Shown here: positions 1,920-53,359 of the stretch, in pieces
Position numbering within the stretch: the first letter of the stretch is position 1
Layout: each line of letters begins with the position of its first letter
Assembly (NCBI GenBank): GCA_947177485.1
Contig: CAMWUR010000004.1
Location: 271-64,270 of the forward strand
Direction of reading: 5' to 3'
Source: an uncultured Helicobacter sp.
GTDB taxonomy: Bacteria; Campylobacterota; Campylobacteria; Campylobacterales; Helicobacteraceae
DNA length: 64,000 nucleotides
Notes under the pieces: model-generated
What the model was told of the DNA's origin: nothing
Database searches by the model: none
The model's input: only the letters and a program-made list of their open reading frames with translations
Made by a program: the position numbers and the translations under genes

Positions 1920-2681
1920 CTAGGCTAGAAGCGTATCGATTTTGCTACGCAAATATTGCGTGTTATAGACGTTCGCATACAATGCAGCATTCTCTTTTAA
2001 TTTTGCCTGATTCAGCTCGTTATAATTTTCGGCAACATCATTATTTTGTTGGCTGCTTTCTGCTGCTGTGAGATTCACGATTGTAACGAGATTGGAATTG
2101 ATACCATGTTGGATTCCGTTCATCACCGAACCGATATTGGCACGTTCCATATTGACATTTGTCATGAAATCAAGGATTGTTTGTTGGTCGTTCACATCAA
2201 CAAGCGAGGTATTGGGTGCATTGATATTGAGCGTAACGCTTGTTTCGTTGCCTGTAACAAAGGTCAGCTCGGACGCGAAGACATTTTTGCCATTGAATGA
2301 AGCCTGCATGACAGAATCGCGCATGCTCGCCTTGAGCGCGTTGGTTTCGCTCTGAATCATCGCACGTTGCTCGGTTGTGAGCGTATCGTTGCCGAGTTTG
2401 ACGGAAAGCACATTGATTCTGTCTGCTGTGGCTGTCATGTTGCCGAGAGTCGAATCCGCGATTTGCAACATTCCGATTGCATCGTTTGCATTGCGCACAC
2501 CCTGTGTGAGCCCCGAGATTTGAGACAAAAGCGAATCTGCAATCATGAGGTTTGCACCATCTGTTCCTTGCAATGCACGCATTGCCGCGATGTTTTCAAG
2601 CGCACTTTTCTCTTCGTTTTTCGCTTTGTTTGCGTTGTTGTTCGCTGTTGCGTTGATAGTCTGACTTTCACCGATTTTCAT
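1920..2681 (-). CDS. flaC: short flagellin-family protein, FlaC-like (flagellin N- and C-terminal segments, no central domain)
   Basis: 253 aa. ALENIAAMRAL, DAIGMLQIADS and a C-terminal KENAALYA..LLA align with Campylobacter FlaC as I recall it. Confidence 0.7.
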   Translation of the reverse strand: MKIGESQTINATANNNANKAKNEEKSALENIAAMRALQGTDGANLMIADSLLSQISGLTQGVRNANDAIGMLQIADSTLGNMTATADRINVLSVKLGNDTLTTEQRAMIQSETNALKASMRDSVMQASFNGKNVFASELTFVTGNETSVTLNINAPNTSLVDVNDQQTILDFMTNVNMERANIGSVMNGIQHGINSNLVTIVNLTAAESSQQNNDVAENYNELNQAKLKENAALYANVYNTQYLRSKIDTLLA

Positions 2682-2738
2682 TGTTGACTCCTTGTCGTGT
2701 TTGATGAAGAACTAATATGAATCCTTCTGCTTTTACTC

Positions 2739-2755
2739 AAGCAATTACTGTTCCA
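2739..2755 (-). promoter_or_regulatory. candidate RpoN (sigma-54) promoter for the flaC-like gene
   Basis: The minus strand reads TGGAAC-agtaa-TTGCTT (GG-N10-GC spacing), about 58 nt upstream of the ATG at 2681. It overlaps the accC stop codon. Confidence 0.55.
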
Positions 2756-19390: not shown

Positions 19391-20521
19391 TTAGACATTA
19401 AGAACTTGGCGATACTCTTCTCGTATTCTATGGAGCAAAATATAAGAATCATTCCTGTACACTTCCCAATACATAAAGCCGTTCAGTCGATTTGTTTTTG
19501 CATTTTTTAATTGCGCAGCGAGAGTGTGCATGTCATAAATCTGCCCTTCAAATATGAGTTTGCCTTCCTGTGTGAGCGTTGCTTCAAAACAGGTATTTTT
19601 TAAATACAATTTTTCCCCAACATGCAAGAATCCAGCCGCAATCATTGCGCTCAAAGTCGCCTTTATGGATTTCTTGTCAAACTCTGCTTTTGCAATAGGG
19701 CTATCCTCAAACACGACAGAATCCAAACGTTGTTTGCCATAGTGAATATAATCCGTGTTTTGTTCCAGCATGATATAATGCCTACCTAATCTTTTTGCCA
19801 TTGCCGCTGTGGTCATCGTGCCGCCAAAGGGGTCGAGCACAACATCACCTATATGGGAACTAATCGCGATGATTCGATATAGCAAAGCTTCGGGTTTTTG
19901 CGTATTATGTAGTTTTTTGCCGCTAGAATCCTTGAGTCTTTCTTTGCCATTGCAAATGGGGATTTTCCAAACACTTCCAAGTTGTTTGCGTGTTCCATTT
20001 TCAAAATCAATAATTTCACAATTGAGTTCCTTTGCCGTTTTGTAGTTAAATGTATATTTCGCATTTTTATCTTTTGTCGCCCAAATCAATGTTTCATGCG
20101 CATTATTGAGCCGCGTGCCATGAAAATTAGGTGTGGGATTGCTTTTATGCCAAATCACATCATTAATGAACCAAAAGCCACGTTCTTGCATGATTGCCCC
20201 GAGACTATAAATACATTGCATTGCGCCAATCACCCACATGCTACCATTTGGTTTTAGGATTCTATGGCATTGTTCAAGCCACAGACGACTAAAACGTATA
20301 TAATCTGCATTATTGGCAAAAGCGTCCCAAACATCATTGCAACCGCGAAAATCGCTGCCTTCTGGACGTTGTAACCTGCCCTCAACGCGCATAAAATAGG
20401 GCGGGTCGGCAAAAATGAGGTCAATGCTCGAATCGGGAATTGTTTGCAACAGCTTGAGGCTATCGCCCTGCAAGATTTGATTGATTGGTAATGTGTTCCT
20501 CTCGTGATTTTGCATGCTCAT
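19391..20521 (-). CDS. beta-class N6-adenine DNA methyltransferase, CcrM/M.HinfI-like (predicted GANTC specificity)
   Basis: 376 aa. IFADPPY, NDVIWHKSNPTPNF, NAHETLIWA and HNTQKPEALLYRII are collinear with Caulobacter CcrM as I recall it. Confidence 0.85.
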   Translation of the reverse strand: MSMQNHERNTLPINQILQGDSLKLLQTIPDSSIDLIFADPPYFMRVEGRLQRPEGSDFRGCNDVWDAFANNADYIRFSRLWLEQCHRILKPNGSMWVIGAMQCIYSLGAIMQERGFWFINDVIWHKSNPTPNFHGTRLNNAHETLIWATKDKNAKYTFNYKTAKELNCEIIDFENGTRKQLGSVWKIPICNGKERLKDSSGKKLHNTQKPEALLYRIIAISSHIGDVVLDPFGGTMTTAAMAKRLGRHYIMLEQNTDYIHYGKQRLDSVVFEDSPIAKAEFDKKSIKATLSAMIAAGFLHVGEKLYLKNTCFEATLTQEGKLIFEGQIYDMHTLAAQLKNAKTNRLNGFMYWEVYRNDSYILLHRIREEYRQVLNV

Positions 20522-21714
20522 TCCAAAAATTCCTTGAAGCTTTTATCTATGAGGCAGTTTTCCAAGCTTCTTTGCGAAAACAAAAAACGTCCATCGCACA
20601 CAAAGCCGAGTTCTGCCCAATCGATGGCATTCAATTTATTGCAAAGTTCATATAGTTTTTTAGAATCAACATGAAACTTTGGAAAAATGGCGAGGATTGA
20701 GCCATCGTAAGCTTTGCATGTGTGGATAAAAAAAGGTTTTCGATTCCGAGTCTTTGTGTTAACATAGATTCGTGGTTTATCACTTTGATAATAATCTCTG
20801 CCCCACTGCCACCAATTTGTCGCGTCAAATTTTCTAATCTTTCTTTGCAGCAATTGTTCCTTAAAGTCTTGCAAATAGGCGCAATCTTTGCCATAGTCGC
20901 CATAAATCATGCGCCTTGTTTTTCCACTTTTTGCCGTGCTTGAGCAAACAAATTCCATATTCCCAAACGTATTATTGGTAAAAATCGAATCCGCTCCGCT
21001 CACTGCGCCGACTTTGACGAAAAACAACGCGCTAAATGGAACGTCATAACGTTTCGTGGTCAAAAAAACCTGCCCGTCTACACATCTAAATTCTTTGTTG
21101 CCATTCGTGCTACGTTCAAAATTCCCCTTTTCAAATCGCCAAATCGCGCAATTGGGTTGCGCGCCTGCAAAAATCTTTTGGTCTCCCAAATCAATAAAAT
21201 CCGTGATTGTGCCTTGAGAAAACAAAAACGCGTTGAGCTTCCTGCTCGATGTGCTCTTGAGAAAATCGCGCGGGGTGATGAAAATGAGCTCGCCCTTGTC
21301 CTTGAGGTGCAAAATACTTTTGTAGATAAAAAATAGATAGAGATTCGAACGCAAATCAAAGATATTTTGATAGGCGTTTAAAAGAAATTTGGTCGAATCG
21401 ACAATATCTTGGTAACGCACATAAGGAGGATTTCCGATAATACAATCAAACGTTTCATCGAGGCTCAACTTAAAAAAATCGATATGCACAACCCGCGATT
21501 CTAATGTAGAATCTAAACATAGGCTCGTGTCGATTTCGACCCCCAACGCGTTGTTGGGCAGGTGGTGCAAAAACGCCCCGTCTCCACAGCTTGGCTCGAG
21601 GAATCGCGGATTCCCCAGCCGCCTCATGCTTTGGGCAAGGTGCAACATCATGCTCACAATATGTTGCGGTGTGAAAACTTGCCCAAGAGATTTGACATCG
21701 CGCATTGTTTGCAA
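20518..21714 (-). CDS. gamma-class N6-adenine DNA methyltransferase (TaqI/Eco57I-like fold), paralog of 36354..37541
   Basis: 398 aa with GQVFTPQHIV, EPSCGDGAF and GNPPYV. 4-nt overlap with the CcrM-like gene. Confidence 0.85.
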   Translation of the reverse strand: MQTMRDVKSLGQVFTPQHIVSMMLHLAQSMRRLGNPRFLEPSCGDGAFLHHLPNNALGVEIDTSLCLDSTLESRVVHIDFFKLSLDETFDCIIGNPPYVRYQDIVDSTKFLLNAYQNIFDLRSNLYLFFIYKSILHLKDKGELIFITPRDFLKSTSSRKLNAFLFSQGTITDFIDLGDQKIFAGAQPNCAIWRFEKGNFERSTNGNKEFRCVDGQVFLTTKRYDVPFSALFFVKVGAVSGADSIFTNNTFGNMEFVCSSTAKSGKTRRMIYGDYGKDCAYLQDFKEQLLQRKIRKFDATNWWQWGRDYYQSDKPRIYVNTKTRNRKPFFIHTCKAYDGSILAIFPKFHVDSKKLYELCNKLNAIDWAELGFVCDGRFLFSQRSLENCLIDKSFKEFLE

Positions 21715-36094: not shown

Positions 36095-36110
36095 TAGAGC
36101 TTATTGGTGT

Positions 36111-36137
36111 TAGGATTGTTGCTTGCAGGCAATCCTA
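36111..36137 (+). terminator. hairpin downstream of the reductase gene
   Basis: TAGGATTG-11 nt-CAATCCTA inverted repeat, with no clear U-tail. Confidence 0.35.
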
Positions 36138-36237
36138 AGTGCGCATGTTGTTTGGGGGGAGATTATGTAATGTTTTATGTTATGTCCAATAATTCAAAAT
36201 TGCTAATTAAAAGAGAGTGATAAAATAATACATTGCT

Positions 36238-36353
36238 ATTTGCCGCGTTGCTCACAAGCGGCGCAACTATTTGCTTGGAATCTCCTTTTTGATAGGCTTC
36301 CATTGCGCCTTGTGTGATTCCAAAAACTAAAATCCATTTCATGGTTAAATCCT
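36238..36353 (-). repeat. degenerate copy C of the ilvD 3' end plus spacer, abutting the M1 stop codon
   Basis: tttgccgcgttgctcacaagcggcgcaac..ttgcttggaatctcc..gataggcttccattgcgcc aligns with 40510..40600 and 38806..38900. It lacks the first ~30 nt and has a 9-nt deletion. Confidence 0.85.
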
Positions 36354-37541
36354 TTATCCAACCTTACTACCAATGTCCTTAAAGCTAGAATCTAACATGC
36401 AATTCTCCAAGCTTCTTTGGGAAAATAAAAATCGTCCATCACATACAAAACCTAGTTCCTCCCAATCTACATTATTGAGTCTCTCGCATAATTCTTGTAA
36501 GATATTAGAATCTACTTCAAATTTTGGAAAAACCGCCAAAATAGAGCCATCATAAGCCTTGCAAGAATGCAGGAAAAAAGGCTTTTTATTTCGAGTTTTG
36601 GTATTAACATAGATTCGTGGTTGTTCGCTTTTGTGGTAGTCTCTGCCCCATTGCCACCAATTGTTTTCATTAAATCTTTTAATTTTTCTTTGTAATAATT
36701 TTTGTTTAAATTCTTGCAAATATACACAATCTTTGGCATAGATTCCATAAATCATTCTTTTTGTTTTGCCACTTTTTGCCGTAGTAGAATTTACAAAATC
36801 TACATTACCCCATTGTTGATTTGCAAAAATAGAATCTGCTCCACTTACCGCACCAACTTTCACAAAAAATAATGAGCTAAAGGGAATACTATAAGATTTT
36901 TTAGTAAAAAGAATCTGCCCATTGATACAACTAAATTCCCTCAAACATTGGGTTTTTCGCCCAAAATTACCTTTTTCAAATCTCCATATCGCACAATTTG
37001 GTTGAGCCTTGTTAAAAATCTTTTTATCTCCCAAATCTATAAAATCTGTTATGCTACCTTGCGAGAATAAAAACTTATTGAGTTTTATGCTTGCTGTGCT
37101 TTTTAGAAAATCTCTAGGGGTGATAAAAATTAATTCCCCCTTATCTTTTAAATGCAAGATGGACTTATAGATAAAAAATAAATACAAATTCGAGCGAGAA
37201 TCAAAGATATTCTTATAGGCATTTAAAAGAAATTTTGTAGAATCCAAAATATCTTGATAACGCACATAAGGAGGGTTGCCAATAATGCAATCAAATTTTT
37301 CACTCACAGGATAGCTAAAAAAATCAACTTTCAACACAGACTTATCGCAAACTACTTTAGAATCTAATTCTATGCCTACTTTGTTGTTGGGTAAATTTTC
37401 AAAAAATGCTCCATTTCCACAGCTTGGCTCTAAGAATCTAGGATTAGAAAGCTTTTTTGTGCTTTGAATGAGATTTAACATATCATTGACAATATGCGGT
37501 GGTGTGAAAACTTGCCCTAAATTTTCTACATCAAGATTCAT
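36354..37541 (-). CDS. gamma-class N6-adenine DNA methyltransferase (M1), paralog of 20518..21714
   Basis: 395 aa with GQVFTPPHIV, EPSCGNGAF and GNPPYV. Collinear with the 398-aa paralog along its whole length. AT-rich. Confidence 0.85.
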   Translation of the reverse strand: MNLDVENLGQVFTPPHIVNDMLNLIQSTKKLSNPRFLEPSCGNGAFFENLPNNKVGIELDSKVVCDKSVLKVDFFSYPVSEKFDCIIGNPPYVRYQDILDSTKFLLNAYKNIFDSRSNLYLFFIYKSILHLKDKGELIFITPRDFLKSTASIKLNKFLFSQGSITDFIDLGDKKIFNKAQPNCAIWRFEKGNFGRKTQCLREFSCINGQILFTKKSYSIPFSSLFFVKVGAVSGADSIFANQQWGNVDFVNSTTAKSGKTKRMIYGIYAKDCVYLQEFKQKLLQRKIKRFNENNWWQWGRDYHKSEQPRIYVNTKTRNKKPFFLHSCKAYDGSILAVFPKFEVDSNILQELCERLNNVDWEELGFVCDGRFLFSQRSLENCMLDSSFKDIGSKVG

Positions 37542-38154
37542 AAAAATATCTCCTAAAATGGAGGTAAGCTTCGGCTCTTAGCTTTAAGGATTGCTCAAAA
37601 GTTTCAAGCAAAAATCTTTTTGCACTTTCAAAGTCTCTCGCAACAATATTGCGATTGTTATCCCATTTTGCTTGAAAGGGTAAATTATTCCCATTTGGCA
37701 AAATAGATTCTAGGCTTTTTAGCGAAGTGGCAAAAACATCGCTGGGATTATCCTTATTAATAATCAAAAAACAATAATCTTTTGTGTTTTCTTGGATATT
37801 TTCTTTAAGATTTTTAAAATAGCAATCCCAACTTACACCATTACCAAAAGGCGGAATCTTGCCTGTTAGGGCATAATATATTCCAAGTTTGCAATTAAGA
37901 TTATCGGTAGTTTTTGTTGTGCTTACCTTGATATTAACAGGGTAAAAACTATTATTTTCCTCAAAGCTGAAATCTATCCAATCACGCATATTTGGACGAT
38001 TGATTGCAAAGTTTGATTCTAAGCATTTAAAAATTTCATCCTCATTAAAGGCAGAATTTATCCTACCATCTCGACTTTGCTTACTTAAAGCAATTGGGTT
38101 TATTTGTAAAAACTCTACAATTTGAATAAGCAAATTTGGCATAACTTGGCTCAT
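37531..38154 (-). CDS. putative type II restriction endonuclease (R1) partnered with M1
   Basis: 207 aa with an 11-nt overlap with M1. Possible PD-(D/E)xK-like core DWIDFSF...VNIKVS (MspI/HinP1I-style D..N.K). Assigned by context only. Confidence 0.45.
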   Translation of the reverse strand: MSQVMPNLLIQIVEFLQINPIALSKQSRDGRINSAFNEDEIFKCLESNFAINRPNMRDWIDFSFEENNSFYPVNIKVSTTKTTDNLNCKLGIYYALTGKIPPFGNGVSWDCYFKNLKENIQENTKDYCFLIINKDNPSDVFATSLKSLESILPNGNNLPFQAKWDNNRNIVARDFESAKRFLLETFEQSLKLRAEAYLHFRRYFYES

Positions 38155-38169
38155 TTTATTTCTTTATCC

Positions 38170-38778
38170 TCAAACTTGGTTCTGCTGTCTATCTACATTC
38201 TCTGCAGCCAATCTTTCTTGTATAATTTCAATTAGAACTTCGCACAATACATCAAAATAGCCATATTCAAAGTAAAAATACTCCACCTCCTCTGTTCGTG
38301 CCCTTTCACTCATATATCTAAATTGAGTAAAGATGTCTTGATTATTTACCAAAAGACTTTTTATGTCTTTTTCTCTTTTTTTATTAGGTGGTGTAGAATT
38401 ATTAAATTTTTCTTTTGAGTTTTCAGAGGTAACACCACGAATAAATAACTCTGGTATTTTCTTGTCTCGAATGTAAATATTATATTTGTTGCAAATTGCA
38501 TCTTGAGTATCTTTGTCTATTTTTTCAAATAGTTTATATAAATCATGTGTTCTATCTGGCTTCTCTCCACTTTCTCCCGAAATAATAGTTTTCAATAGTA
38601 GCTCAATAGCTAAACCATAATTGGTAGCTGATGCAAAAAGCTCAAATGGAGTCATGCTTCGTTTTGCCTCATGTATTTGAGTGTAGATTCTAGCTAACGA
38701 CCAAAAACAAATTGCGCTTCCATATGAAGTTATATAATCATTTTCCTCACACCCTTTAAATTTTTTATTTGTTGCCAT
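38170..38778 (-). CDS. HEPN-like domain protein (202 aa) immediately upstream of R1-M1
   Basis: ORF 38170..39009 trimmed to the ATG at 38778, the first codon after repeat B. YGLAIELLLKTIISG..KPDRTHDLYKLFEKI and FTQFRYMSE resemble the HEPN (PF05168-type) helices. Confidence 0.5.
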   Translation of the reverse strand: MATNKKFKGCEENDYITSYGSAICFWSLARIYTQIHEAKRSMTPFELFASATNYGLAIELLLKTIISGESGEKPDRTHDLYKLFEKIDKDTQDAICNKYNIYIRDKKIPELFIRGVTSENSKEKFNNSTPPNKKREKDIKSLLVNNQDIFTQFRYMSERARTEEVEYFYFEYGYFDVLCEVLIEIIQERLAAENVDRQQNQV

Positions 38779-38996
38779 TTTCACATCTCCGTCTTCAACG
38801 CCGCGCCATTTGCGGCATTGCTCACAAGCAGCGCATAGCGGCGCAACCATTTGCTTGGAATCTCTTTTTTGATAGGCTTCCATTTGCCTTACATGCTTCC
38901 AAAAACCAAAGTCCATTTCATAATTAAATCCTTTATCCAACTTTGCTGCTAATGTTCTTAAGCTAGAATCTAGCATACAATTCTCTAGACTTCGTA
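38776..38996 (-). repeat. copy B: ilvD 3' end (about 125 bp) + spacer + 3' fragment of an M1-type methylase gene
   Basis: 38776..38903 is near-identical to 40478..40603. 38904..38996 aligns with 36325..36415 (spacer plus M1 codons RSLENCMLDSS...) with a 1-nt deletion that removes the stop. Confidence 0.9.
38933..38996 (-). pseudogene. 3'-terminal remnant of an M1-type methyltransferase gene
   Basis: It translates as RSLENCMLDSS, as does the M1 C-terminus. It is frameshifted after DSS and truncated at the HNH-gene stop. Confidence 0.8.
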
Positions 38997-38998
38997 CA

Positions 38999-39574
38999 TT
39001 ATTTTTCATATTGCCTCAAATATTCTATTACTTTTTCTAAAAATTTTGGATTATCTTTAAACCTACCAAGTCCAGTATTGCAACTATCGCATATCCACTC
39101 TCTACCTTCACCTGTTTCATGATTATGGTCTCGAACAAGATTTGCTGTAATTCCTACAATGCTTCTTTTTTCACAAATTGGACATGTGAAAACACTGCCT
39201 TTTGGTGGCGCAAGTTTGTCCATTCGTTTCTTTTCAGCAATAGAAAGCTTTACGCCATCAATTTGTTTTCTACATTCTCTGCAACTCGGTCTTGTTGTTT
39301 TGTTGCCTTTTGCATCGGTTTGATTTATTTCAAAATTATCGGTATTTTTTAAGATATGACAAATATTGCAAATTTTAACATCAAACCCCTTTCCTGTTTT
39401 ATAAATATCAATAGATTCCAAATCTTCATATTTCATTTTCTTAATCTCATTAACGCCTATAAATAAAACCATTGCAAAATTTCCATTAAGAGCCTTAACA
39501 ATACCCACAGAATTTTCTGCTATATTGTCAATTTGTTTATTCGCAATTACAAAACTATCGATATTTATATGCAT
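38999..39574 (-). CDS. HNH / endonuclease VII-type (beta-beta-alpha-Me) nuclease with Cys4 zinc sites; putative restriction endonuclease (R2)
   Basis: 191 aa with VRDHNHETGEGREWICDSCNTGLGRF and the pairs CNIC, CRECR and CPIC. Its size and layout recall Hpy99I. 10-nt overlap with M2. Confidence 0.6.
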   Translation of the reverse strand: MHINIDSFVIANKQIDNIAENSVGIVKALNGNFAMVLFIGVNEIKKMKYEDLESIDIYKTGKGFDVKICNICHILKNTDNFEINQTDAKGNKTTRPSCRECRKQIDGVKLSIAEKKRMDKLAPPKGSVFTCPICEKRSIVGITANLVRDHNHETGEGREWICDSCNTGLGRFKDNPKFLEKVIEYLRQYEK

Positions 39575-40380
39575 AAGACATTCCTATATTTATCTAGTCT
39601 TTTTCTTGCCATCTCAATATATTCTTGACTTATATCTACTCCTATAAAATTTCTTTTGGCTAAAAAAGCCATTTTACATGTTGTGCCAGAGCCACACATC
39701 GGGTCAAATACAATATCTCCTTCATTGCTCCAAGATAAAATATGGTCTTGTGCAAGCTGTTCAGGATACATAGCTGGATGTTGAAAGGCTTCCCTATCAT
39801 TTGTTGTTCCACCAAGTCCTACTGCATAATACCAAATGTTCGTTTTTGTTTTTTCTTTTTTTAGCTCCTTTAGAACCTTATGGTTTTTTCCATCTGATTT
39901 TTTGTTGGCAACCAACATTTCTAAGCCGCTTCTTGCAGTTTCTTCTTTTAGAGGATTAAAGGTTTTTGGCTTTCCTTTAGAAAAAACAAACATATATTCA
40001 TAACTATTGGTATAAGCATTTGAGCGCATAAAAGGCGTATTTTTCTTTGCATATATCATTGTGTCATGCACGTTAAACCCAATTTGTTGAAAATATAAAG
40101 CCTGTTTAAAGCTCGTTAAACTTTTATTGCCATTTTTGATTTTATCGCCCACAACCCAAACAACAACACCGCCATTTTTTGTAATTCTAAAAATTTCATT
40201 GGCAATATTTTCAAAATCAAAGTTATATCCATTGTAATCTCTTAGGTCATCATAAGGCGGAGAGGTTACAATCAAATCAATACAGTTATTGCTTACGTTG
40301 TTTTGCATAAAATGTACACAATCATCTACATAAAATTTATTTAATAAATGATTATAGTTTTTGTAAATTGTTTGTGTCAT
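39565..40380 (-). CDS. beta-class N4-cytosine/N6-adenine DNA methyltransferase (M2)
   Basis: 271 aa with DLIVTSPPY (SPPY motif IV) followed by the C-terminal FDPMCGSGTT (motif I). Confidence 0.85.
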   Translation of the reverse strand: MTQTIYKNYNHLLNKFYVDDCVHFMQNNVSNNCIDLIVTSPPYDDLRDYNGYNFDFENIANEIFRITKNGGVVVWVVGDKIKNGNKSLTSFKQALYFQQIGFNVHDTMIYAKKNTPFMRSNAYTNSYEYMFVFSKGKPKTFNPLKEETARSGLEMLVANKKSDGKNHKVLKELKKEKTKTNIWYYAVGLGGTTNDREAFQHPAMYPEQLAQDHILSWSNEGDIVFDPMCGSGTTCKMAFLAKRNFIGVDISQEYIEMARKRLDKYRNVLCI

Positions 40381-40477
40381 TTTTGCTCCTTTCGTCTCAA
40401 TATAATATATCTATAATTGTACTATCCTAATATAATTTGCAACAAATACGGAGTGTTTGTAGCACCAAAAGTCAATG

Positions 40478-40603
40478 CATTTTCACATCTCCGTCTTCAA
40501 CACCGCGCCATTTGCGGCATTGCTCACAAGCAGCGCATAGCGGCGCAACCATTTGCTTGGAATCTCCTTCTTGATGGGCTTCCATTGCGCCTTACGTGCC
40601 TCC
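40478..40603 (-). repeat. copy A: the native ilvD 3' end (the duplicated target)
   Basis: It is the functional end of ilvD including its stop codon, and is near-identical to 38776..38903. Confidence 0.9.
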
Positions 40604-42789
40604 AAAACAGCGGAATCCACGAGCAGCTCGAGCGTCCCCTTGCTCACCGAAATCGCGATTCTATCGCCGTCTTCAATCAGCGCAATGAGCCCCCCCTCTG
40701 CCGCTTCGGGGCTGACATGCCCAATGCAGCCCCCACGTGTCGCGCCGCTAAAGCGCCCGTCCGTAATCAGCGCAACCGATTCTCCAAGTCCCATTCCCAT
40801 AATGAGACTTGTGGGGGTTAGCATTTCTTGCATTCCGGGTCCTCCCTTTGGTCCCTCGTAGCGAATCACAACGACATTCCCCGCCTTTACCTTGCCACCC
40901 GCAATGCCCTTAATCGCCTCATCTTGCGAGTTGAAACACACCGCACTTCCCTCAAACTCTTTCATAGATTCCGCCACTGCGGCGACTTTGAGCACCGCGC
41001 CCTCACGCGCAAGATTGCCATAGAGGATTTTTAATCCACCCATTTGCGAATACGCGTTTTCATTGTGGCGAATGATATTAGAATCCGTAATCTCCGCCCC
41101 CGCAATGCGCTCACCCAGTGTCTCGCCTGTAATCGTGAGCGCGTCAAGATAGAGCGTATGCGGCGGAAGTTGTGGTAAATCAAGGATAAAAAAATCGCTA
41201 ATTTCTTTAGGATAAAACGGAGCATAAGCCACAGGCAATTGCTCATAAGGAACTTGCCTAAAGCCCATTTTTGTATAAAATTCCCGATTTTGCTGCGTGG
41301 CTTCGGGCGTATCAAAAATAAGCTCGCCAAAGTTTAATCCACCCGTATAAGTATTAATATAGCCCTTATTAGGACTATCGGCAATCAATGTTTTATAATG
41401 CGATCGCTCAAGAAATGCAAACAACTCGGCACAAAGTCGATTTACAAGAGAAATGGACGAATAATATCTTTGATGAATGATGAATTTTTTTAGGATTCCA
41501 ATGCCTTTTTGCTCTTCATAAACACCGATACAACCAACGACTTCTTCGCCCTCAAGAGCAATCCAAAATGCACCATTTTTATAATAATCAGCAATATTAT
41601 GCAAGTCAAGTTGAGTTTTAAGATATGCCTTACGCCATAAATCATCGTGATTGTCGTAATTCAAAACAAGAGAAATCACAGCCTCTTGATATTTTTGCAA
41701 TTCTTTTGTAAATCGCATAATGCGAATCGAATCTGTTGTTCCGCTTGTTTTAAAATCTAGCTCAAAGGCAGCGTTACCCCTTTTTGCCACCTCATTCATC
41801 ACGGCACTGACGCCACCGGCGCGGTGAATATCCTCCATATGCACGTTACTAAGGGCAGGGGCGATTTTGGCGATGTGTGCCACTTGGGAGGCAAGTGCGT
41901 TGATAGAATCTAGGTTAAAATCCACCTCCGCTTCTTTGGCGATTGCGAGCATATGCAGAATCGTATTCGTGCTTCCACCCATTGCCATATCTACGACAAA
42001 GGCGTTATGCACAGCTTTTTGATTCAAAATATTGCGGAATCTAAACTTTTCGCTTTTTTGCTCATCAAGCGCGATTTCTACGATTCTACGCGCTGCTTTG
42101 CGTAAAAGCTCCTCGCGCTCCTTGCTAAGGGCTAGAATCGTCCCATTTCCGGGCAGCGCAACACCCATAGCCTCACAAAGCGTATTCATAGAGTTTGCGG
42201 TAAACATTCCACTACAACTTCCGCCACTTGGGCACGCATTGCATTCTATTTCGTGTAACCTTTTCTCATCAATCTTGCCCTCATTAAACGCGCCCACCGC
42301 TTCAAAGGCAGAGTTTAAATCTAGTATTGTGCCGTCCTCTAGCTTGCCCGCACGCATTGGACCGCCACTCACAAAGATTGTCGGCACATTCACGCGCAAA
42401 GCACCCATAAGCATTCCGGGCACGATTTTATCGCAGTTTGGGATACAAATCATCGCGTCCAAACTATGCGCATTCATCATTGTTTCAATAGAATCCGCAA
42501 TCAGCTCGCGGCTTGGCAGAGAGTAGAGCATACCGCTATGCCCCATTGCGATTCCGTCATCTACACCGATGGTGTTAAACTCAAAGGGCACGCCACCCGC
42601 AGTGCGAATCTCCTCTTTGATGATTTGCGCGTATTTATTTAAGAAAAAATGCCCGGGAATAATGTCAATATAACTATTTGCAATGCCGATAAAGGGCTTG
42701 TTAAAATCCTCGTCCTTTAGACCGGTAGCGCGTAATAAACTTCTGTGGGGGGCTCTTTGGAATCCCTTTTTAATGGTGTCGCTTCGCAT
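40483..42789 (-). CDS. ilvD: dihydroxy-acid dehydratase carrying a 206-aa internal GNAT-like insertion
   Basis: 768 aa. The IlvD/Edd motifs ([29 protein letters not shown]) are intact on both sides. Minus the insertion the protein is 562 aa. Confidence 0.9.
41155..41772 (-). other. in-frame 618-bp AT-rich insertion encoding a GNAT-type acetyltransferase-like domain within ilvD
   Basis: It lies between ..[10 protein letters not shown] and [11 protein letters not shown]... The insert contains [38 protein letters not shown] and [13 protein letters not shown] (GNAT beta4-alpha3 and motif B patterns). Confidence 0.7.
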
Positions 42790-47381: not shown

Positions 47382-48281
47382 GTGAAAAAGACACTTTTGC
47401 TCGGCGCAGTTGCCTATGACCCAAAGGTTGTGCCCATCTGGGATATTATCCGTGACTATGCAAACGCGGGAGATTTTGGAATCGGGCTGGATTATGTCCT
47501 GTTTAGCAATTATGAACGACAAGTTGATTCGCTTCTCAAGGGGCATATCGATGTGGCTTGGAATACAAATGTCGCGTGGATTCGCACATTGCACGCGACA
47601 AACAATGCAGCGCGCGCTCTTATCATGCGCGACACCGATATTGACTTTACGACAAAGTTTGTCGCACTCAAAGATAGTGGAATCCAAACCCTCGTCGACC
47701 TCAAGGGCAAGCGCTTTGGGCTCGGCAGCCGCGATTCGGCGCAAGCGGCGATTATGGGGTTGTATTATCTGCAACAAGCAAAGATTGTACCTGAAATCAC
47801 CGAGTTCCACTCGCCCGATGAATGCGGGCGCGGGCGCAGCGATGAGATTCGCGCAGCAGAGCTTAAGGTTGTGCGCCACAACAGCGACTTGGGCAAGCAC
47901 GGCGACACGGGGCGCAGCGAGTTTGATGTGCTTGATAGCATTAAGCGCGGCGAGCTGGACGCGGGCGCGATTGGCTCAAGCACGTGGATTCGTATTTTGC
48001 AAGAGGGCAGCTACCCCGAGATTGCGAGCTTTTGGAGCAGCCCGGGCTATTGCCATTGCAATTTTTCGGTGCTGCCAAGCTTTGATTTTGGGCTTGGCGA
48101 GACGTTTGCGCAGATGTTGCTTTCGCAAAACGAGCGCAAAGACGACCCGATGATTAGCAAGATGATGAGCATGGAGGGGCTGAACAAGTGGGTGCGCGTT
48201 GGCGAAGAGCAACTGCGCGGGTATGACGCGATTTATACGGCGATGAGAGAGCAGAATCTGCTGGAGAATGCGTCTCTCTAA
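47382..48281 (+). CDS. PhnD/phosphonate-binding-like periplasmic-binding-fold protein with no signal peptide
   Basis: ORF 47328..48281. The GTG at 47382 is preceded by AAGGAG. The GAVAYDPKV...DVAWNTNVAW pattern is present. Confidence 0.55.
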   Translation: MKKTLLLGAVAYDPKVVPIWDIIRDYANAGDFGIGLDYVLFSNYERQVDSLLKGHIDVAWNTNVAWIRTLHATNNAARALIMRDTDIDFTTKFVALKDSGIQTLVDLKGKRFGLGSRDSAQAAIMGLYYLQQAKIVPEITEFHSPDECGRGRSDEIRAAELKVVRHNSDLGKHGDTGRSEFDVLDSIKRGELDAGAIGSSTWIRILQEGSYPEIASFWSSPGYCHCNFSVLPSFDFGLGETFAQMLLSQNERKDDPMISKMMSMEGLNKWVRVGEEQLRGYDAIYTAMREQNLLENASL

Positions 48282-48292
48282 TCTTTCATCAT

Positions 48293-48329
48293 ATAAGAGG
48301 GCAGAATCTAGCTATTCTGTTCCTCTTAT
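48293..48329. terminator. bidirectional hairpin between convergent genes, at the right edge of core DNA
   Basis: ATAAGAGG-GCAGAAT-ctagct-ATTCTGT-t-CCTCTTAT, an imperfect stem of about 14 bp. Confidence 0.55.
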
Positions 48330-48333
48330 CCTC

Positions 48334-48603
48334 TTAGAACAGCTCGCTATGGCTACCAAGACGCATTGCCAAAAGTTCTAAATATTCATTATTTATTTTA
48401 TAAATTAAAATAAGGTCGGGTCTAATATGGCAATCTCGGCAACCTTTAAAATTACCTACTAGTGCATGGTCATGATATTTATCTTCCAAAATTTCCTTTT
48501 TGGCAAGTTTGTCAAGAATTTTGAGTACTTGTTCTTTATCGCTTTGGGCGAGTTTTTTAAAAGATTTTTTAAATTTTTTTGTAAAGGTAATAGAATATGT
48601 CAT
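48334..48603 (-). CDS. type II TA toxin, YafQ/RelE-family mRNA interferase (copy 1)
   Basis: 89 aa with HDHALVGNFKGCRDCHIRPDLILIY...GSHSELF. Confidence 0.85.
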   Translation of the reverse strand: MTYSITFTKKFKKSFKKLAQSDKEQVLKILDKLAKKEILEDKYHDHALVGNFKGCRDCHIRPDLILIYKINNEYLELLAMRLGSHSELF

Positions 48604-48845
48604 GATTCTAAATCCGCCTTCAATTCTTCTATGCTATGAAAAGTTTTCAATGTGCCCTTTTTGCGTTTTCTTTCTATTTCTTTTATTGCCTTTTTGAGCC
48701 TTTTTTCTGCCTTTGGATTTAGGGTATAATTTGCTGCTGCACAAATGGGGCATTCCTCTTGAATCTGAAGTTTTGGATTAAAAGCCTTGAGGCTCTCTAA
48801 GACTCCCAAAACCTTAGAATCGGCATTTTTGACAACGAGTGTCAT
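48600..48845 (-). CDS. cognate antitoxin (copy 1) with the shared MT(L/I)xLKNxD N-terminal module
   Basis: 81 aa with a 4-nt overlap with the toxin. The N-terminal ~28 aa are shared with 49209..49421 and 50812..51003. Confidence 0.7.
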   Translation of the reverse strand: MTLVVKNADSKVLGVLESLKAFNPKLQIQEECPICAAANYTLNPKAEKRLKKAIKEIERKRKKGTLKTFHSIEELKADLES

Positions 48846-48894
48846 TTTTTCTCCTTTGTTTTTTGATGATGTCTTGTTTTGGCTTCATGTCGCT

Positions 48895-48936
48895 TTATTT
48901 GAGCAGGAATCCACATTTATAGACCTTTGATTTTGC
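48895..48936 (-). repeat. degenerate copy of the 3' end of gene 49461..50435
   Basis: It aligns with 49461..49502 at about two-thirds identity by eye. The core ATAGACCTTTG is identical, the stop codons align, and the translations are KVYKCGFLLK* versus KVYEYEFLLE*. Confidence 0.5.
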
Positions 48937-49206
48937 TTAAAATAGCTCACTATGGCTACTCACACGAACGCAAATGAGCACTAAAATATGTTCATATTTT
49001 TTATAGATTAAGAGCAAGTCAGGGCTGATATGGCATTCTCTGTGTCCCTGATAGAGACCGAATAGCGCATGGTCTCTATGACGTTCCTCTAGGGTTTCGT
49101 TGCGGGCAAGTTTTTCAATCATGCTATCAACAATATCGGCTTTACCTTGTTTTATTATTTTTTTGTAATCTTTTTTAAATTGTGATGTCCATTCTACCCG
49201 ATACAT
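48937..49206 (-). CDS. type II TA toxin, YafQ/RelE-family mRNA interferase (copy 2)
   Basis: 89 aa with RDHALFGLYQGHRECHISPDLLLIY...SSHSELF. Confidence 0.85.
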   Translation of the reverse strand: MYRVEWTSQFKKDYKKIIKQGKADIVDSMIEKLARNETLEERHRDHALFGLYQGHRECHISPDLLLIYKKYEHILVLICVRVSSHSELF

Positions 49207-49208
49207 TA

Positions 49209-49421
49209 TTAATCACCCAATAAAGCCTCTTTTGCTTCTTCCCACGAATCATAGGGCTTTCTTATGCCCTGTTTAATTTCTGTATAGATTGTTTCAGCCT
49301 CTGCCATTGCCTCTAATGTCTCTTGAGATATTTGAATAATCTCAAAATCTGGCTTTAAGATTTTCAGACTCTGAATGACATGCAACAATTCAATATCAAC
49401 ATTCTTCAAAACTAGTGTCAT
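49209..49421 (-). CDS. cognate antitoxin (copy 2) with the shared N-terminal module
   Basis: 70 aa, N-terminus MTLVLKNVDIELLHVIQSLKILKP. Confidence 0.7.
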   Translation of the reverse strand: MTLVLKNVDIELLHVIQSLKILKPDFEIIQISQETLEAMAEAETIYTEIKQGIRKPYDSWEEAKEALLGD

Positions 49422-49460
49422 TTTCTCTCCTTTGTTTTTGTATCGCTTTTTTGATTTTTG

Positions 49461-50435
49461 CTACTCGAGTAAAAACTCATATTCATAGACCTTTGGTTCA
49501 ATCTTTTTGGCGAGATTCTCGAGCTCATAGTTGAGATTCCCAATTAAATCTTTGTAATACGAATCTTTCGCCTTTTGTGGCGGATTCATTCTACCGCTCG
49601 CGCTTAGCCCTTGAAAATATGCCTTGATGTCATAGAGGCTTGCATTGGGATTATAGGGATTCTTAGAATCATGAAAATCTTGGCTATGGTAATATTGCCA
49701 AAGCTTGAGCCCCGCAGCAAAGACTGCCTTTGCCTCTTCGCTAAATTCTAAAGGCTCTGTGGGAATCAGATTTTCAACATAAAACGATTCCTCATCAAAG
49801 CCATTTTGTTCTTTTTTATTATGTTGAGTTGGCGCAACATCTCTCTTAAGGTTTTTGCGAGATTCTTCAGCTAGCGCTTCAGAATGACAAGCGGAGTCTT
49901 GTTTGATTTTGCCACTTATAAAACAAATCATGAAATCACTCTCAAACGCTTCTTTTGCGCCCACATCTGTTTCGGAAAATGGGATAAATGGATTTGTTCC
50001 CTCTTTGCTTGTAATGCGATTCTGCCCATGAAAAAGCATAAACGCGAGGCAATCATTTTGAAACTCTCTATCCTTTGCCCATTCCTTGTTTGGCATTAGG
50101 AATTGGTCGCGGTCGTTTATCCATGTGGCTTTGATACAATGGCGCACGGCGAAGTAAATGGAAACCAACATAATATTGTTTTTGGTAATTTTAAGTTTGG
50201 TTATTCCTTTAGCATTACCAACACCTTTTATAGAATCCCAAAAATTAATATTACAAAAATTACTATTTTGAAAATCTGTTCCTTTGCAACAAATTGTGCA
50301 AAGTTCTTGGGATTGCGTATCAACAAATTGTTTTATCCATTGATTAATGCTTTTTGCCTTGTCGTTTATATAAATCCTCTTTATCCCTAAAAATTCTCCA
50401 TTCCTATCAAACATATCAAGTCCTATTACTTTCAT
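49461..50435 (-). CDS. hypothetical protein; candidate detached target-recognition (C-terminal) part of the upstream nuclease-methylase
   Basis: 324 aa. Its start overlaps the Doc stop (ATGA). I recognised no catalytic motifs. Assigned by context only. Confidence 0.4.
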   Translation of the reverse strand: MKVIGLDMFDRNGEFLGIKRIYINDKAKSINQWIKQFVDTQSQELCTICCKGTDFQNSNFCNINFWDSIKGVGNAKGITKLKITKNNIMLVSIYFAVRHCIKATWINDRDQFLMPNKEWAKDREFQNDCLAFMLFHGQNRITSKEGTNPFIPFSETDVGAKEAFESDFMICFISGKIKQDSACHSEALAEESRKNLKRDVAPTQHNKKEQNGFDEESFYVENLIPTEPLEFSEEAKAVFAAGLKLWQYYHSQDFHDSKNPYNPNASLYDIKAYFQGLSASGRMNPPQKAKDSYYKDLIGNLNYELENLAKKIEPKVYEYEFLLE

Positions 50436-50815
50436 TGTGTCTCCAATAATTTTTTTAGTATTTTTTGTAAATCTTCTTTTGATATTTTGCCCTCTGCTAC
50501 AAAGACTACAATATCTTCTAATCTTTGATAAAAATCATCAGGTAAATGATTGGGACAATTGAGCTCTATAAACGCATTTGCTAGATAAATTGCAGTGCGC
50601 TTGTTTCCATCTGCAAAGGGGTGAAACTTCACACAGGCAAACATTAAATGTGTGAGTTTATCTAAAAAGTGAGGATAAAGTTCATCATTTTGAATTTGAC
50701 TCAAAGCAGAATCTAAAAGCCCGATTTGGCTTTTATTAAAACCCTTCAAGCCCCCCATTATTTCCATAATATCATCATGCAAGATAATTGCTTCATCAAG
50801 TGATAAATATTTCAT
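50432..50815 (-). CDS. Doc (death-on-curing) / Fic-family toxin
   Basis: 127 aa with the HPFADGNKRTA motif. Confidence 0.85.
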   Translation of the reverse strand: MKYLSLDEAIILHDDIMEIMGGLKGFNKSQIGLLDSALSQIQNDELYPHFLDKLTHLMFACVKFHPFADGNKRTAIYLANAFIELNCPNHLPDDFYQRLEDIVVFVAEGKISKEDLQKILKKLLETQ

Positions 50816-51003
50816 TTATCTTTTAATCTCTCAAATACTGCACGATTTTGCGGTTTATTTAGGTTTTGTTTCATTTTTTCTCGCAATAATGAAAATTCTT
50901 CTTTTTCCTCCCCTTTTTCAATAGTAAGTTTTGGATTCAAAGCCTGTAAGCTTTCAATCACTTGCAAAGTTGCAGAATCTACATTTTTAAGCGTTATTGT
51001 CAT
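50812..51003 (-). CDS. antitoxin for Doc carrying the same N-terminal module as the YafQ antitoxins
   Basis: 63 aa, N-terminus MTITLKNVDSATLQVIESLQALNPKL, with a 4-nt overlap with doc. Confidence 0.65.
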   Translation of the reverse strand: MTITLKNVDSATLQVIESLQALNPKLTIEKGEEKEEFSLLREKMKQNLNKPQNRAVFERLKDK

Positions 51004-51028
51004 TTTATCTCCTTTTTGCTATTATCAT

Positions 51029-52699
51029 TTATTGCTTGCCATTTTTGCTCAAATCCCAAACTAAGAATCCAATCGGAAATTGCCCCTTAACATTATCAAA
51101 AGTATCAGCTGGAACAATAAATCCTCCCTTAAACTCTGCCTTGAATAATTCTCTAAATTCAATAAAATTACTTGCATTCAGATATTTAAGTTTAGAAAAA
51201 CTTGCAAGTATGCAGTGTGGAATTTCTAAGTAAGTGCGTATAAAAAATTGCACAAAAAGTTCCCGTGTAGATTTTTTATATTTTTTGCCATATTGTTCCG
51301 AAACAAATGTTTGATTACTAACATTTATCTTGTTATTTGTTGTTTGTGTTATGGTTTTTGTACTAGCAGCTTCCGCATACGGCGGGTTGATAAAGATGAT
51401 GAGCTTTTTGCGTTTTTCTTTATCTTTGAGAATTTCTTGCAATTTTTTTGGAAGTTTAGAGTTTTGGCAGTTTCTGCAAGTAGAATCCAGCTTATCTTTA
51501 TGTTTTTCACAAGGCTTGTCGAAAAAACAATCATTCAAAAAATCAAATTGGAAAATGTGCCTTTCTAAAAGTGGCAAATGCTGATTTTTTGCAAGCTCTT
51601 TCATAATCTCCACATCTGCCTTATCGAGCGTTGAGGCATAAAAATTGCGTGGTTCGGTGAGGTTTGCAAACAGATTCCCTGTCCCTGCGGCACAATCCCA
51701 GACAATGTATTCACTCTGCCAATCTTCGCCTAACGCTTTAACAAGGTATTCTTGCGCCTTTTGCACCCAAACTTGTGGCGTAAAAAACGCCCCCTTGCGC
51801 TCGCGAATATCACTAGGCACGAGCAAATCGCGCCTATCGATGATATAATCCCAATAGATTTCTTTTGGAGGGCGCTCGTAGAGATTCCAAAACTCATTAT
51901 GGGCTTTTTGATTGTCTCTAAACGTTGCTGTGTCCTTTTGCTCCGACCCCATGAACGTGATGATTTTATTAAACTCATAATGTGTTTTTCTAAGCACAAC
52001 AAAGAGTTTATCTAGTAGGCTTTGATTCTCGATACTTAGCAAATCGGCGAGATAGAAATCCGCGTCCAAAATGCCCGAGCTTTTGGCAAGATTCCAATCA
52101 ATGCTAATAGAATCCTTCACACTTAAAAGCCATTTTTGATAAACATTTGTGAAATTATTCTTTGTGATTTGAATCCTATGCACATGCTCATTTTCGAGCG
52201 TGAAATTCTCCCTGATAAACTCGCGCAATTCTTTAGAATCATGCTCAAAATCAAATTGCAATTTCTTGGATTCCAAAATATCTTTTGACTTTGCATAGAG
52301 TTGCCTAAATTCCTTCGTGCTGTGGTCGCTCGGTGCGACATTCCAATTAAAATCATTTTGGCTAAAAATATCCATGATTTCATAATACGGAATAAACGCG
52401 ATTTTCTCGCAATCAAACGCGCCCAAGAAAAGCGGCGGGAGCTCGTTTTCAAATGTTCTTTCCTTGCCAATCGTTAGAATCAGCTGCACAAACGATTCCA
52501 CAATATCCGCTTTATTCCCCCTCTTTGCCTCTGCCCAAAGAAAATGGATTGCCTGAAACAATGTCTTGGCGCGATACGACACGCAAAAATCAATTTTGCC
52601 CATCGTTGACATGTCCAATCCCTTGAAAAAATCATGCGCGATATGGTTTTTCAAATCCTCTTCAGGCATATTTTGCGCATACATCAACCCCTCCTTCAC
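51029..52699 (-). CDS. gamma-class N6-adenine methyltransferase domain fused to an N-terminal PD-(D/E)xK-like region (type IIG/IIL-like, lacking a TRD)
   Basis: 556 aa with GAFFTPQVWV, VWDCAAGTGNL (motif I) and FINPPYAEA (motif IV). The N-terminus has IDF-x17-WAEAK (D-x19-E-x-K). Confidence 0.7.
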   Translation of the reverse strand: MKEGLMYAQNMPEEDLKNHIAHDFFKGLDMSTMGKIDFCVSYRAKTLFQAIHFLWAEAKRGNKADIVESFVQLILTIGKERTFENELPPLFLGAFDCEKIAFIPYYEIMDIFSQNDFNWNVAPSDHSTKEFRQLYAKSKDILESKKLQFDFEHDSKELREFIRENFTLENEHVHRIQITKNNFTNVYQKWLLSVKDSISIDWNLAKSSGILDADFYLADLLSIENQSLLDKLFVVLRKTHYEFNKIITFMGSEQKDTATFRDNQKAHNEFWNLYERPPKEIYWDYIIDRRDLLVPSDIRERKGAFFTPQVWVQKAQEYLVKALGEDWQSEYIVWDCAAGTGNLFANLTEPRNFYASTLDKADVEIMKELAKNQHLPLLERHIFQFDFLNDCFFDKPCEKHKDKLDSTCRNCQNSKLPKKLQEILKDKEKRKKLIIFINPPYAEAASTKTITQTTNNKINVSNQTFVSEQYGKKYKKSTRELFVQFFIRTYLEIPHCILASFSKLKYLNASNFIEFRELFKAEFKGGFIVPADTFDNVKGQFPIGFLVWDLSKNGKQ

Positions 52700-52714
52700 A
52701 GCGACTTTGCCAAA

Positions 52715-53359
52715 TCACCCCATACGCGCGAGCCAAAAATCGATGTTTTGGCATTCCTCGCTTGCTATGGTGGAAGCGCCGTGCCCGGGATAGATGGGTT
52801 TGTTTGCACGTTCACTTTTGGCATTGCACCAAACTTGGAATCGCAACAGGCTCTGTTTCATCTCGCTTTCGGACGAGTAGGGGAAGTCATAGCGTCCAAT
52901 CGAGCGATGAAAGATAAAATCGCCACTAAAGATTCCCACATCGGTTTCGATGATGCAACAGCCCGGCGTGTGCCCGGGGAAATGCCAGTAGCGCACTTCA
53001 ATGTCACCAAAGCGCAGGCTCTCGCCGTCATTTTGCACCAAGTGCGTGGGCGCGGAGCAGGGGAGATTGAGCCCGAAGCAATCCTCGCGCAGCATAAACG
53101 CATCGCCGGCATGCACAATCAGCGGAATCCCTGCATAGACACTTTGCAGCTCCTGATTGCTCCAAATATGGTCAAAATGCCCATGCGTGTTCAGAATCGC
53201 AAGCGGGTTGTGGCAGTTTTCGCACACCCATTTTGTCGCGCCCATTCCAGGGTCGATAATGAGTTCGCCAGAATCAAAGACAAGAATATAACAATTTGTT
53301 TGGTATTCGCCAAAGGCGTGCATAAGTAGGCGAGGCGAAGAATGTTGAGATTGTGACAT
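52715..53359 (-). CDS. MBL-fold metallo-hydrolase (glyoxalase II-like)
   Basis: 214 aa with the NTHGHFDH motif. Confidence 0.85.
   Translation of the reverse strand: MSQSQHSSPRLLMHAFGEYQTNCYILVFDSGELIIDPGMGATKWVCENCHNPLAILNTHGHFDHIWSNQELQSVYAGIPLIVHAGDAFMLREDCFGLNLPCSAPTHLVQNDGESLRFGDIEVRYWHFPGHTPGCCIIETDVGIFSGDFIFHRSIGRYDFPYSSESEMKQSLLRFQVWCNAKSERANKPIYPGHGASTIASEECQNIDFWLARMG

Follow-up and report, generated by a model that had tools for sequence, protein, structure and literature searches.

What does a small HEPN-like gene do when it is packed directly upstream of a restriction-modification (R-M) pair? The question is raised by a stretch of 64,000 nucleotides from an uncultured Helicobacter sp. 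(GenBank assembly GCA_947177485.1, contig CAMWUR010000004.1, positions 271 to 64,270 of the forward strand), which is called the window here. The HEPN-like gene encodes a 202-aa protein and is followed by R1, a putative restriction endonuclease, and M1, a DNA methyltransferase. An earlier interpretation made from the letters alone (the sequence-only reading) proposed that the three genes form a three-part defence unit. Our analysis favours another explanation. We believe, with a probability of roughly 0.6, that the 202-aa protein is a solo HEPN-T effector, carried as a separable passenger at an R-M hotspot.

The 202-aa protein matched the Pfam family PF05168 (HEPN) with 21.6 bits (E 2.5e-4), the gathering score of this model being 22. 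The protein is rare. A single-sequence search of 5.8 billion proteins returned 5 clusters, and a profile search returned 37 clusters. An exhaustive HMMER search of 1.84 billion representatives found 447 relatives at E<=1e-3, of which 45 reached E<=1e-10; most of the relatives stand alone and have a length of about 190-220 aa. PF05168 was matched by 27 of the 31 closer relatives at E<=0.01 and by 63 of 122 broader relatives at E<=1e-3 (best E 2e-10). The sole competing family among the 122 was a caulimovirus coat-protein domain, found in 2 members. NCBIfam, PADLOC and PHROGs gave no usable match for the protein. The top structural match in BFVD was a phage "HEPN domain-containing protein" (E 4.4e-3, probability 1.0). 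The weak matches in the Protein Data Bank (PDB) include seven HEPN entries at E 0.85-6.7 (1ufb, 3o10, 8xeh, 6m6u, 7bxo, 7ae8 and 5fsh), and 8xeh reached a target-normalised template modelling (TM) score of 0.64. The HEPN likeness had first been suggested by the stretches AIELLLKTI...THDLYKLFEKI and FRYMSE. Both are present and are the most conserved parts of the family, and the Pfam and BFVD matches bear the likeness out. The protein is very probably a member of the HEPN superfamily, in which it is a divergent, stand-alone member of the classical branch (HEPN-T, PF05168).

The mean identity among the 122 relatives is about 20%. All of them have E59, R154 and Y155, and conservation is at least 90% at K63, H78, L80, L83, L143 and F150. 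E158 is conserved at the +4 position of R154. The Ex3[KR] motif of helix 2 is present as E59-x3-K63. The Rx4-6H motif is absent from the 202-aa protein, with no histidine 5-7 residues past R154. The AlphaFold2 (AF2) model is a helical bundle with a predicted local distance difference test score (pLDDT) of 84.9 and a predicted TM score (pTM) of 0.86. In this model, helix 44-70 contains E59 and K63, the connector leading to helix 89-103 contains H78, and R154 ends the helix that precedes the last long helix. AF0298-like HEPN-T proteins and AbiV likewise carry Ex3[KR] in helix 2 and keep the motif arginine but not the motif histidine. The segment between helices 2 and 3 supplies another conserved histidine, with which an alternative active site was proposed to form (PMC3710099). 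We assign H78 to this alternative histidine because it is at least 90% conserved and is located in the connector after helix 44-70.

The HEPN gene is real and under purifying selection, because its ratio of nonsynonymous to synonymous substitution rates (dN/dS) is 0.19-0.21 against a 72%-identical ortholog (dS about 0.7). In the same comparison, dN/dS was about 0.10 for R1 and 0.08-0.09 for M1. These data also bear on the rather unlikely alternative that the protein is a non-catalytic or decaying passenger, either an RNA- or nucleotide-binding protein or regulator without a role in defence, or a hitch-hiker that is being lost. Rx4-6H is absent, and HEPN-T and MtlR-type domains without the motif were proposed to be non-catalytic binders (PMC3710099). 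Selection on HEPN is also more relaxed (dN/dS 0.2-0.4, compared with about 0.1 for R1 and M1), and the gene was repeatedly lost or frameshifted in sister lineages. However, E59, K63, H78, R154 and Y155 are strongly conserved over about 450 representative clusters, which argues for a selected active or binding site, and the alternative-histidine arrangement is the very one proposed to be catalytic.

R1 has 953 homologs in Helicobacter, Campylobacter, Bacteroidales and others, and many of them are named "restriction endonuclease" by NCBI. It had no Pfam match and no PDB sequence match. The AF2 model of R1 (pLDDT 88.5) matched HincII and EcoRV in Foldseek (E 4e-4, probability up to 1.0, TM up to 0.62), and the protein matched a PHROG "endonuclease" family with E 3e-27. 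M1 has an NPPY motif and is a gamma N6-adenine methyltransferase of the Eco57I/TaqI type. It matched Pfam Eco57I (E 1.7e-22), N6_Mtase, and the PADLOC model MTase_II PDLC03282 (E 1.6e-135). A total of 80 genome loci with R1 relatives were fetched. M1 was directly downstream of R1 in 78 of the 80 loci, and a HEPN-family gene was present within 5 kb of R1-M1 in one (L018). No recurrent third gene stood beside R1-M1 in these loci, the flanking genes being diverse. The sequence-only reading had assigned R1 by context and left room for something other than a classical type II system. By its predicted structure, R1 is a genuine PD-(D/E)XK restriction enzyme with a HincII/EcoRV-like fold, and since the model matches these enzymes, R1-M1 is taken as a classical type IIP module. 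It is a self-contained two-gene module because M1 follows R1 in 78 of 80 loci and HEPN accompanies the pair in one. A PabI/HpyAXII-type base-excision restriction glycosylase, known in Helicobacter and Campylobacter, was also considered for R1; it was rejected on the HincII/EcoRV match and on the lack of a sequence match to any PDB chain. The window has a second M1-type methyltransferase (20518-21714, minus strand, 398 aa), which is 73% identical to M1. The next gene (19391-20521, minus strand) encodes an N6_N4 methyltransferase that has a RAMA domain. No R1 homolog adjoins this pair (19391-21714). If the second M1-type enzyme had the specificity of M1, the cell would depend less on M1.

The single locus L018 belongs to a metagenome-assembled genome of an uncultured Helicobacteraceae and has the order ilvD-M2-R2-HEPN-R1-M1, as in the window, where M2-R2 is a neighbouring R-M cassette. 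In a protein search, all close HEPN homologs were found downstream of ilvD or on short contigs with a copy of the ilvD 3' end. In loci from three samples (L001-L003, 89% identity), HEPN is intact, R1 is split into 44 and 152 aa, and M1 is intact. In L004 (72% identity), the order is ilvD-HEPN-R1-M1, and HEPN is intact with its start overlapping the ilvD stop; the R1 C-terminus is altered and extended, and M1 is split. Four H. typhlonius assemblies (L012-L015) have the same order, with HEPN broken into 93 and 99 aa beside intact R1 and M1. This frameshift is a 1-nt deletion in a GGAAAAAAG run (A6 to A5), at about 4620 in L012-L015 compared with about 2890 in L004. At the same site, the window allele reads GGAGAGAAG and has no slippery run. 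In Helicobacter sp. HAN017 (L019), R1-M1 is intact, and about 18 nt of the HEPN 5' end (ATGACAACAAGTAAGAAA) are left between it and ilvD. A short spacer without a HEPN gene separates ilvD from R1-M1 in H. canis, H. bilis, H. didelphidarum and Ca. H. avicola, and C. upsaliensis has guaA-R1-M1.

The results showed that HEPN, R1 and M1 decay independently and in both directions. Evidently, cells can carry HEPN when R1 or M1 is broken, and R1-M1 when HEPN is broken. All linked cases sit at one ilvD insertion site in close relatives, which implies that the HEPN/R1-M1 linkage would have arisen once. Independent decay and an apparent single origin therefore argue against an obligatory three-part machine, notably a PrrC-like restraint of a toxic HEPN by R-M proteins. 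The linkage is limited to one locus in one narrow Helicobacter lineage, and its parts are separable. The sequence-only reading had named co-occurrence with the methylase family as a check. L018 and the relatives at the ilvD locus show such co-occurrence, whereas the wider set of R1 loci (HEPN in 1 of 80) and the distant HEPN relatives do not support it.

An integrated three-part defence is unlikely on this evidence. In such a system, the HEPN RNase would be a PrrC-like back-up that is inhibited by R1 and/or M1 and freed when a phage neutralises R-M. The genes are co-oriented with operon-style packing, the trio is intact in both the window and L018, HEPN is under purifying selection, and HEPN/R-M cooperation has precedent (PMC3710099; PrrC). 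But the linkage is found in 1 of 80 loci at a single insertion site, and distant HEPN relatives have no R-M linkage. Cells with a broken R1 (L001-L003) or M1 (L004) keep an intact HEPN and so survive in the absence of the inhibitor that the model requires, and R1-M1 is intact where HEPN is frameshifted or deleted. The 202-aa protein also has no ATPase or sensor domain. The claim that HEPN travels with R-M as a three-part unit is likewise not supported.

The wider HEPN family gives a similar picture of independence. Relatives of about 40% identity are found on phage-like contigs with Bro-N, HNH_3 and AAA_24, another is located on a phage- or plasmid-like contig, and a further one lies in a bacterial genome, where its neighbours are a DEAD helicase and genes of unknown function. 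For about 45 non-redundant HEPN loci, the two nearest genes to the left and right were surveyed, giving 113 proteins. No conserved partner of HEPN was found in these loci, and no Pfam family occurred in more than 3 of the 113 neighbours. Neither a minimal nucleotidyltransferase (MNT) nor a DNA methyltransferase was among the Pfam families listed for the 113 neighbours, and Pfam found no MNT gene in the window island; the missing MNT partner noted at the outset therefore stands. PADLOC matches among the neighbours were scattered, with 1-2 per model, and included type II/IV restriction enzymes, NucC, Mad, SoFic, pVip-like and others. Such matches hint that its members often reside in defence islands, but they reveal no fixed partner. 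It is a family of "solo" HEPN proteins without a protein antitoxin. On the phage- or plasmid-like contig L005, which carries a 43%-identical relative, the adjoining gene (1791-2810, plus strand, 339 aa) has no Pfam match and encodes an "LRNAVAHG" stretch. This stretch resembles the canonical Rx4H HEPN motif, and two different HEPN-type genes may stand side by side there.

Two further ideas concern how a solo HEPN could be controlled. The E-x3-K/His/R-Y solo family (about 450 clusters) might be a new class of antitoxin-less, trigger-activated RNase effectors, recruited here as a co-expressed back-up of type II R-M that acts when restriction fails; we regard this as a long shot. Least probable of all is a toxin-antitoxin (TA) or addiction module that stabilises the island through a non-protein antitoxin, such as a type III RNA in the flanking non-coding or repeat sequence: AbiV, a 201-aa solo HEPN neutralised by the upstream RNA abiV2 (bioRxiv 10.1101/2024.05.05.592566), is a precedent, and no protein partner was found for the HEPN family, but in L004 and H. 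typhlonius HEPN starts next to the ilvD stop codon or overlaps it and has no upstream non-coding region, the island had no Rfam match at the gathering score, Pfam and PADLOC gave no AbiV match, and the gene is easily lost, unlike an addiction module. In the same Rfam scan, one match to CRISPR-DR47 below the threshold fell within the coding sequence of HEPN, which we take as chance.

In this study, we favour the solo effector as a separable passenger. By analogy with AbiV and HepT toxins, the protein would be a dimeric, metal-independent RNase or RNA-binding effector that uses H78, R154 and E59, and it would act as an independent abortive-infection or toxin-like effector. Its gene was probably inserted once between the ilvD stop codon and a complete R1-M1 module, in a lineage related to Helicobacter typhlonius. 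It would be transcribed first in the R1-M1 operon, probably by read-through from ilvD, and in the window also through M2-R2. The HEPN protein would be functionally separable from R1-M1, that is, a passenger or embedded defence gene in an R-M hotspot and not an obligatory third subunit.

Several points weigh against this explanation. The 202-aa protein misses the gathering score of the Pfam model by 0.4 bits, and its assignment to HEPN rests on one Pfam model, the motifs and one BFVD match. Structure searches had been named at the outset as a check on both small proteins. They succeeded for R1 with HincII/EcoRV and gave the BFVD match for HEPN, but Foldseek against the PDB gave no significant match for the HEPN model (best E 0.43). 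PDB sequence searches with the single protein and two family profiles returned nothing relevant. RNase activity can be proposed only by analogy because the canonical Rx4-6H motif is absent. The pseudogene evidence stems partly from metagenome contigs. Finally, tight packing and purifying selection may leave room for some cooperation where all three genes are kept.

The trio lies in an island (about 36100-40480) of low GC content, 32-36% compared with 44-55% in the flanks, directly downstream of ilvD. All island genes are on the minus strand, in the order ilvD, repeat C, M2, R2, repeat B, HEPN-like open reading frame (ORF), R1, M1 and repeat A (Table 1).

Table 1. Genes and repeats of the R-M island, with positions in the window.
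Feature	Position	Strand	Evidence
HEPN-T-like stand-alone gene, 202 aa	38170..38778	-	ORF, Shine-Dalgarno (SD) sequence, Pfam HEPN, family matches, conservation, AF2 model, BFVD, dN/dS
R1, predicted type IIP restriction endonuclease, 207 aa, PD-(D/E)XK, HincII/EcoRV type	37531..38154	-	homologs, AF2, Foldseek, PHROG, dN/dS
M1, gamma-class N6-adenine DNA methyltransferase, 395 aa, NPPY, cognate to R1	36354..37541	-	Pfam, PADLOC, R1 linkage
M2, N4/N6 DNA methyltransferase of the neighbouring cassette	39565..40380	-	Pfam N6_N4_Mtase E 2e-44; PADLOC
R2, His-Me finger restriction endonuclease of the neighbouring cassette	38999..39574	-	Pfam SH3_17 + His_Me_b4a2 + Endonuclease_7, E 5e-36; PADLOC REase_II E 2e-107
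ilvD, chromosomal gene whose 3' end is the insertion hotspot	40483..42789	-	in relatives, HEPN start follows or overlaps ilvD stop
repeat A, downstream boundary of the trio: M1 3' end and older ilvD 3'-end copy	36235..36415	.	repeat comparison
repeat B, upstream boundary of the trio, chimera	38776..38993	.	repeat comparison
repeat C, true ilvD 3' end, duplicated target	40478..40607	.	repeat comparison

The layout described by the sequence-only reading was reproduced on the minus strand: three co-oriented genes, the first two of 202 and 207 aa, in a cassette bounded by repeats. Between the HEPN stop (38170-38172) and the R1 start (38154) there is a 15-nt gap, GGATAAAGAAATAAA, and R1 and M1 overlap by 11 nt. 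The bounding repeats are A and B; repeats are lettered in plus-strand order here, and those called B and C in the earlier interpretation are evidently our A and B. The SD sequence of R1 spans the HEPN stop codon. The HEPN ATG is located at 38778, with a GGAG 8 nt upstream inside the last ilvD codons of repeat B, and the pseudo-ilvD stop codon in repeat B ends 2 nt before this ATG. Upstream, the HEPN ORF remains open as far as 39009, which would give 279 aa, and a product of 268 aa was called in the public annotation (P0001). We rejected both extended products, the extension being repeat B sequence that is not conserved in L018, where the listed HEPN ORF starts at MTTNK and has 198 aa. The product of 202 aa is right because all homologs are 192-204 aa in length and the extension is a non-conserved repeat. 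The ATG of the spurious 279-aa ORF overlaps the R2 stop by 11 nt (38999-39009), like the R1/M1 junction, which is probably a coincidence. A scan for promoters and terminators found promoter-like sites in smaller numbers than in shuffled sequences and no obvious promoter in repeat B, and such a scan is uninformative for Helicobacter promoters. It found no minus-strand terminator in the island.

The repeats record how the island was built. Repeats B and A are 81% identical over 191 nt, and repeats B and C are 94-96% identical over 109-130 nt. Repeat B codes for the last 34 ilvD codons at 94% identity, and repeat A matches the ilvD end at 80%. The chimeric repeat B is like the M1 3' end in 38906-38993 (as in repeat A), and its part 38776-38905 is the ilvD 3'-end copy (94-96%). 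The M2-R2 cassette is absent from L004 and H. typhlonius, where ilvD is joined straight to HEPN. In the window, it is flanked by the 130-nt direct repeats B and C (94% identical), and against these insert-free sites it qualifies as an insertion with long target duplication. The comparison with insert-free sites covers the M2-R2 cassette; for the HEPN-R1-M1 side, the case rests on repeat A being a copy of the ilvD end. As judged from these alignments, the M2-R2 cassette was inserted later, with a duplication of about 130 nt (repeats B and C), because ilvD is directly joined to HEPN without M2-R2 in L004 and H. typhlonius. The repeats arose by long target duplication, as R-M cassettes stacked at the site and duplicated the ilvD 3' end. 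Insertion with long target duplication is a documented mode of R-M movement, especially in Helicobacter and Campylobacter (PMC2853133). The chimeric repeat B suggests that M2-R2 could have left another site, downstream of an M1-type gene, as a circular unit and entered the ilvD-derived repeat through a single crossover. H. typhlonius also carries an extra, inverted fragment of the ilvD C-terminus (about 105 aa, ILV_EDD_C) about 3 kb downstream of M1 (L013-L015, about 9580-10500, minus strand; also L012), which suggests further rearrangements at the hotspot.

Two other features of the window were observed. The ilvD gene encodes 768 aa here and has an in-frame insert of about 200 aa (residues about 339-555) that matches GNAT models (Acetyltransf_1, 22.2 bits against a gathering score of 20.7). 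The ilvD orthologs in L004, L012, L018, L019 and L022 (564-572 aa) are without this GNAT-like insert, and the ilvD ORFs of L032 and L033, which exceed that length as well, have a non-homologous insert at this position. A domain insert within a dihydroxy-acid dehydratase is unusual. A second low-GC island (48000-52800, 33-40% GC) has a Fic/DOC-family gene (50432-50815, minus strand, 127 aa) adjoining ORFs of 324 and 556 aa without a Pfam match. A further toxin or defence cassette may be present in this island.

That defence genes can be embedded in R-M loci has been recognised before. Anantharaman et al. 2013 linked at least 16 HEPN clades to R-M, including HEPN-T clustering with R-M operons (PMC3710099). 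The trio is an ordinary case of this HEPN/R-M linkage and no new kind of defence system, although the HEPN subfamily is uncharacterised. If the protein is active, it would add one more solo HEPN subfamily, with an alternative histidine and neither Rx4-6H nor a protein antitoxin, to the candidate abortive-infection effectors. The alleles of the H. typhlonius group (all intact, HEPN broken, R1 broken, M1 broken) are a natural set on the dependence of an embedded HEPN on its host R-M. The locus also illustrates cleanly how R-M cassettes stack by long target duplication at a single hotspot of the chromosome, the ilvD 3' end.

Among known systems, the AF0298-like HEPN-T protein (PDB 2hsb) shares the PF05168 match (here just below the gathering score), Ex3K, the kept arginine, and the histidine between helices 2 and 3 (H78). 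Unlike it, the protein here is about 60-80 residues longer than the 117-position Pfam domain and has an extra N-terminal helix, a low-confidence insert with two short strands (about 104-140 and 166-170). It also lacks an MNT partner, and no solved HEPN structure was matched significantly. AbiV, the abortive-infection HEPN RNase of Lactococcus and a type III TA toxin, is likewise a solo HEPN of about 200 aa without a protein antitoxin, and its alternative histidine is placed as in HEPN-T (PMC3710099). However, no AbiV match was found here in Pfam or PADLOC at E<=1. A 2024 study assigned AbiV catalysis to R91/H97 in an Rx5H motif (bioRxiv 10.1101/2024.05.05.592566), and the histidine equivalent to H97 is absent here. 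There is also no upstream non-coding antitoxin region, since the orthologs start at the ilvD stop, although an antitoxin RNA might come from the coding sequence itself. HepT-MntA belongs to the same superfamily and gave weak structural matches (8xeh, 6m6u and 7ae8), but here there is neither an adjacent MNT gene nor an Rx4H motif.

PrrC and RloC also place a HEPN-type nuclease gene inside an R-M locus and are the model for a "second line of defence". They have an N-terminal ABC-ATPase domain, type I hsd operons and a conserved linkage, whereas the protein here is a 202-aa solo domain beside a type IIP pair, linked in one lineage (1 of 80 loci) and decaying independently. For the R-M part, the closest likeness is to the HincII/EcoRV-like type IIP systems with long target duplication described by Furuta et al. 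2010, with which the locus shares the predicted R1 fold, a gamma N6-methyladenine (m6A) M1, and repeats of more than 30 bp that copy the target. Unlike those systems, two cassettes are stacked here at one target, and the chimeric repeat B between them still carries the remnant of an M1-type 3' end.

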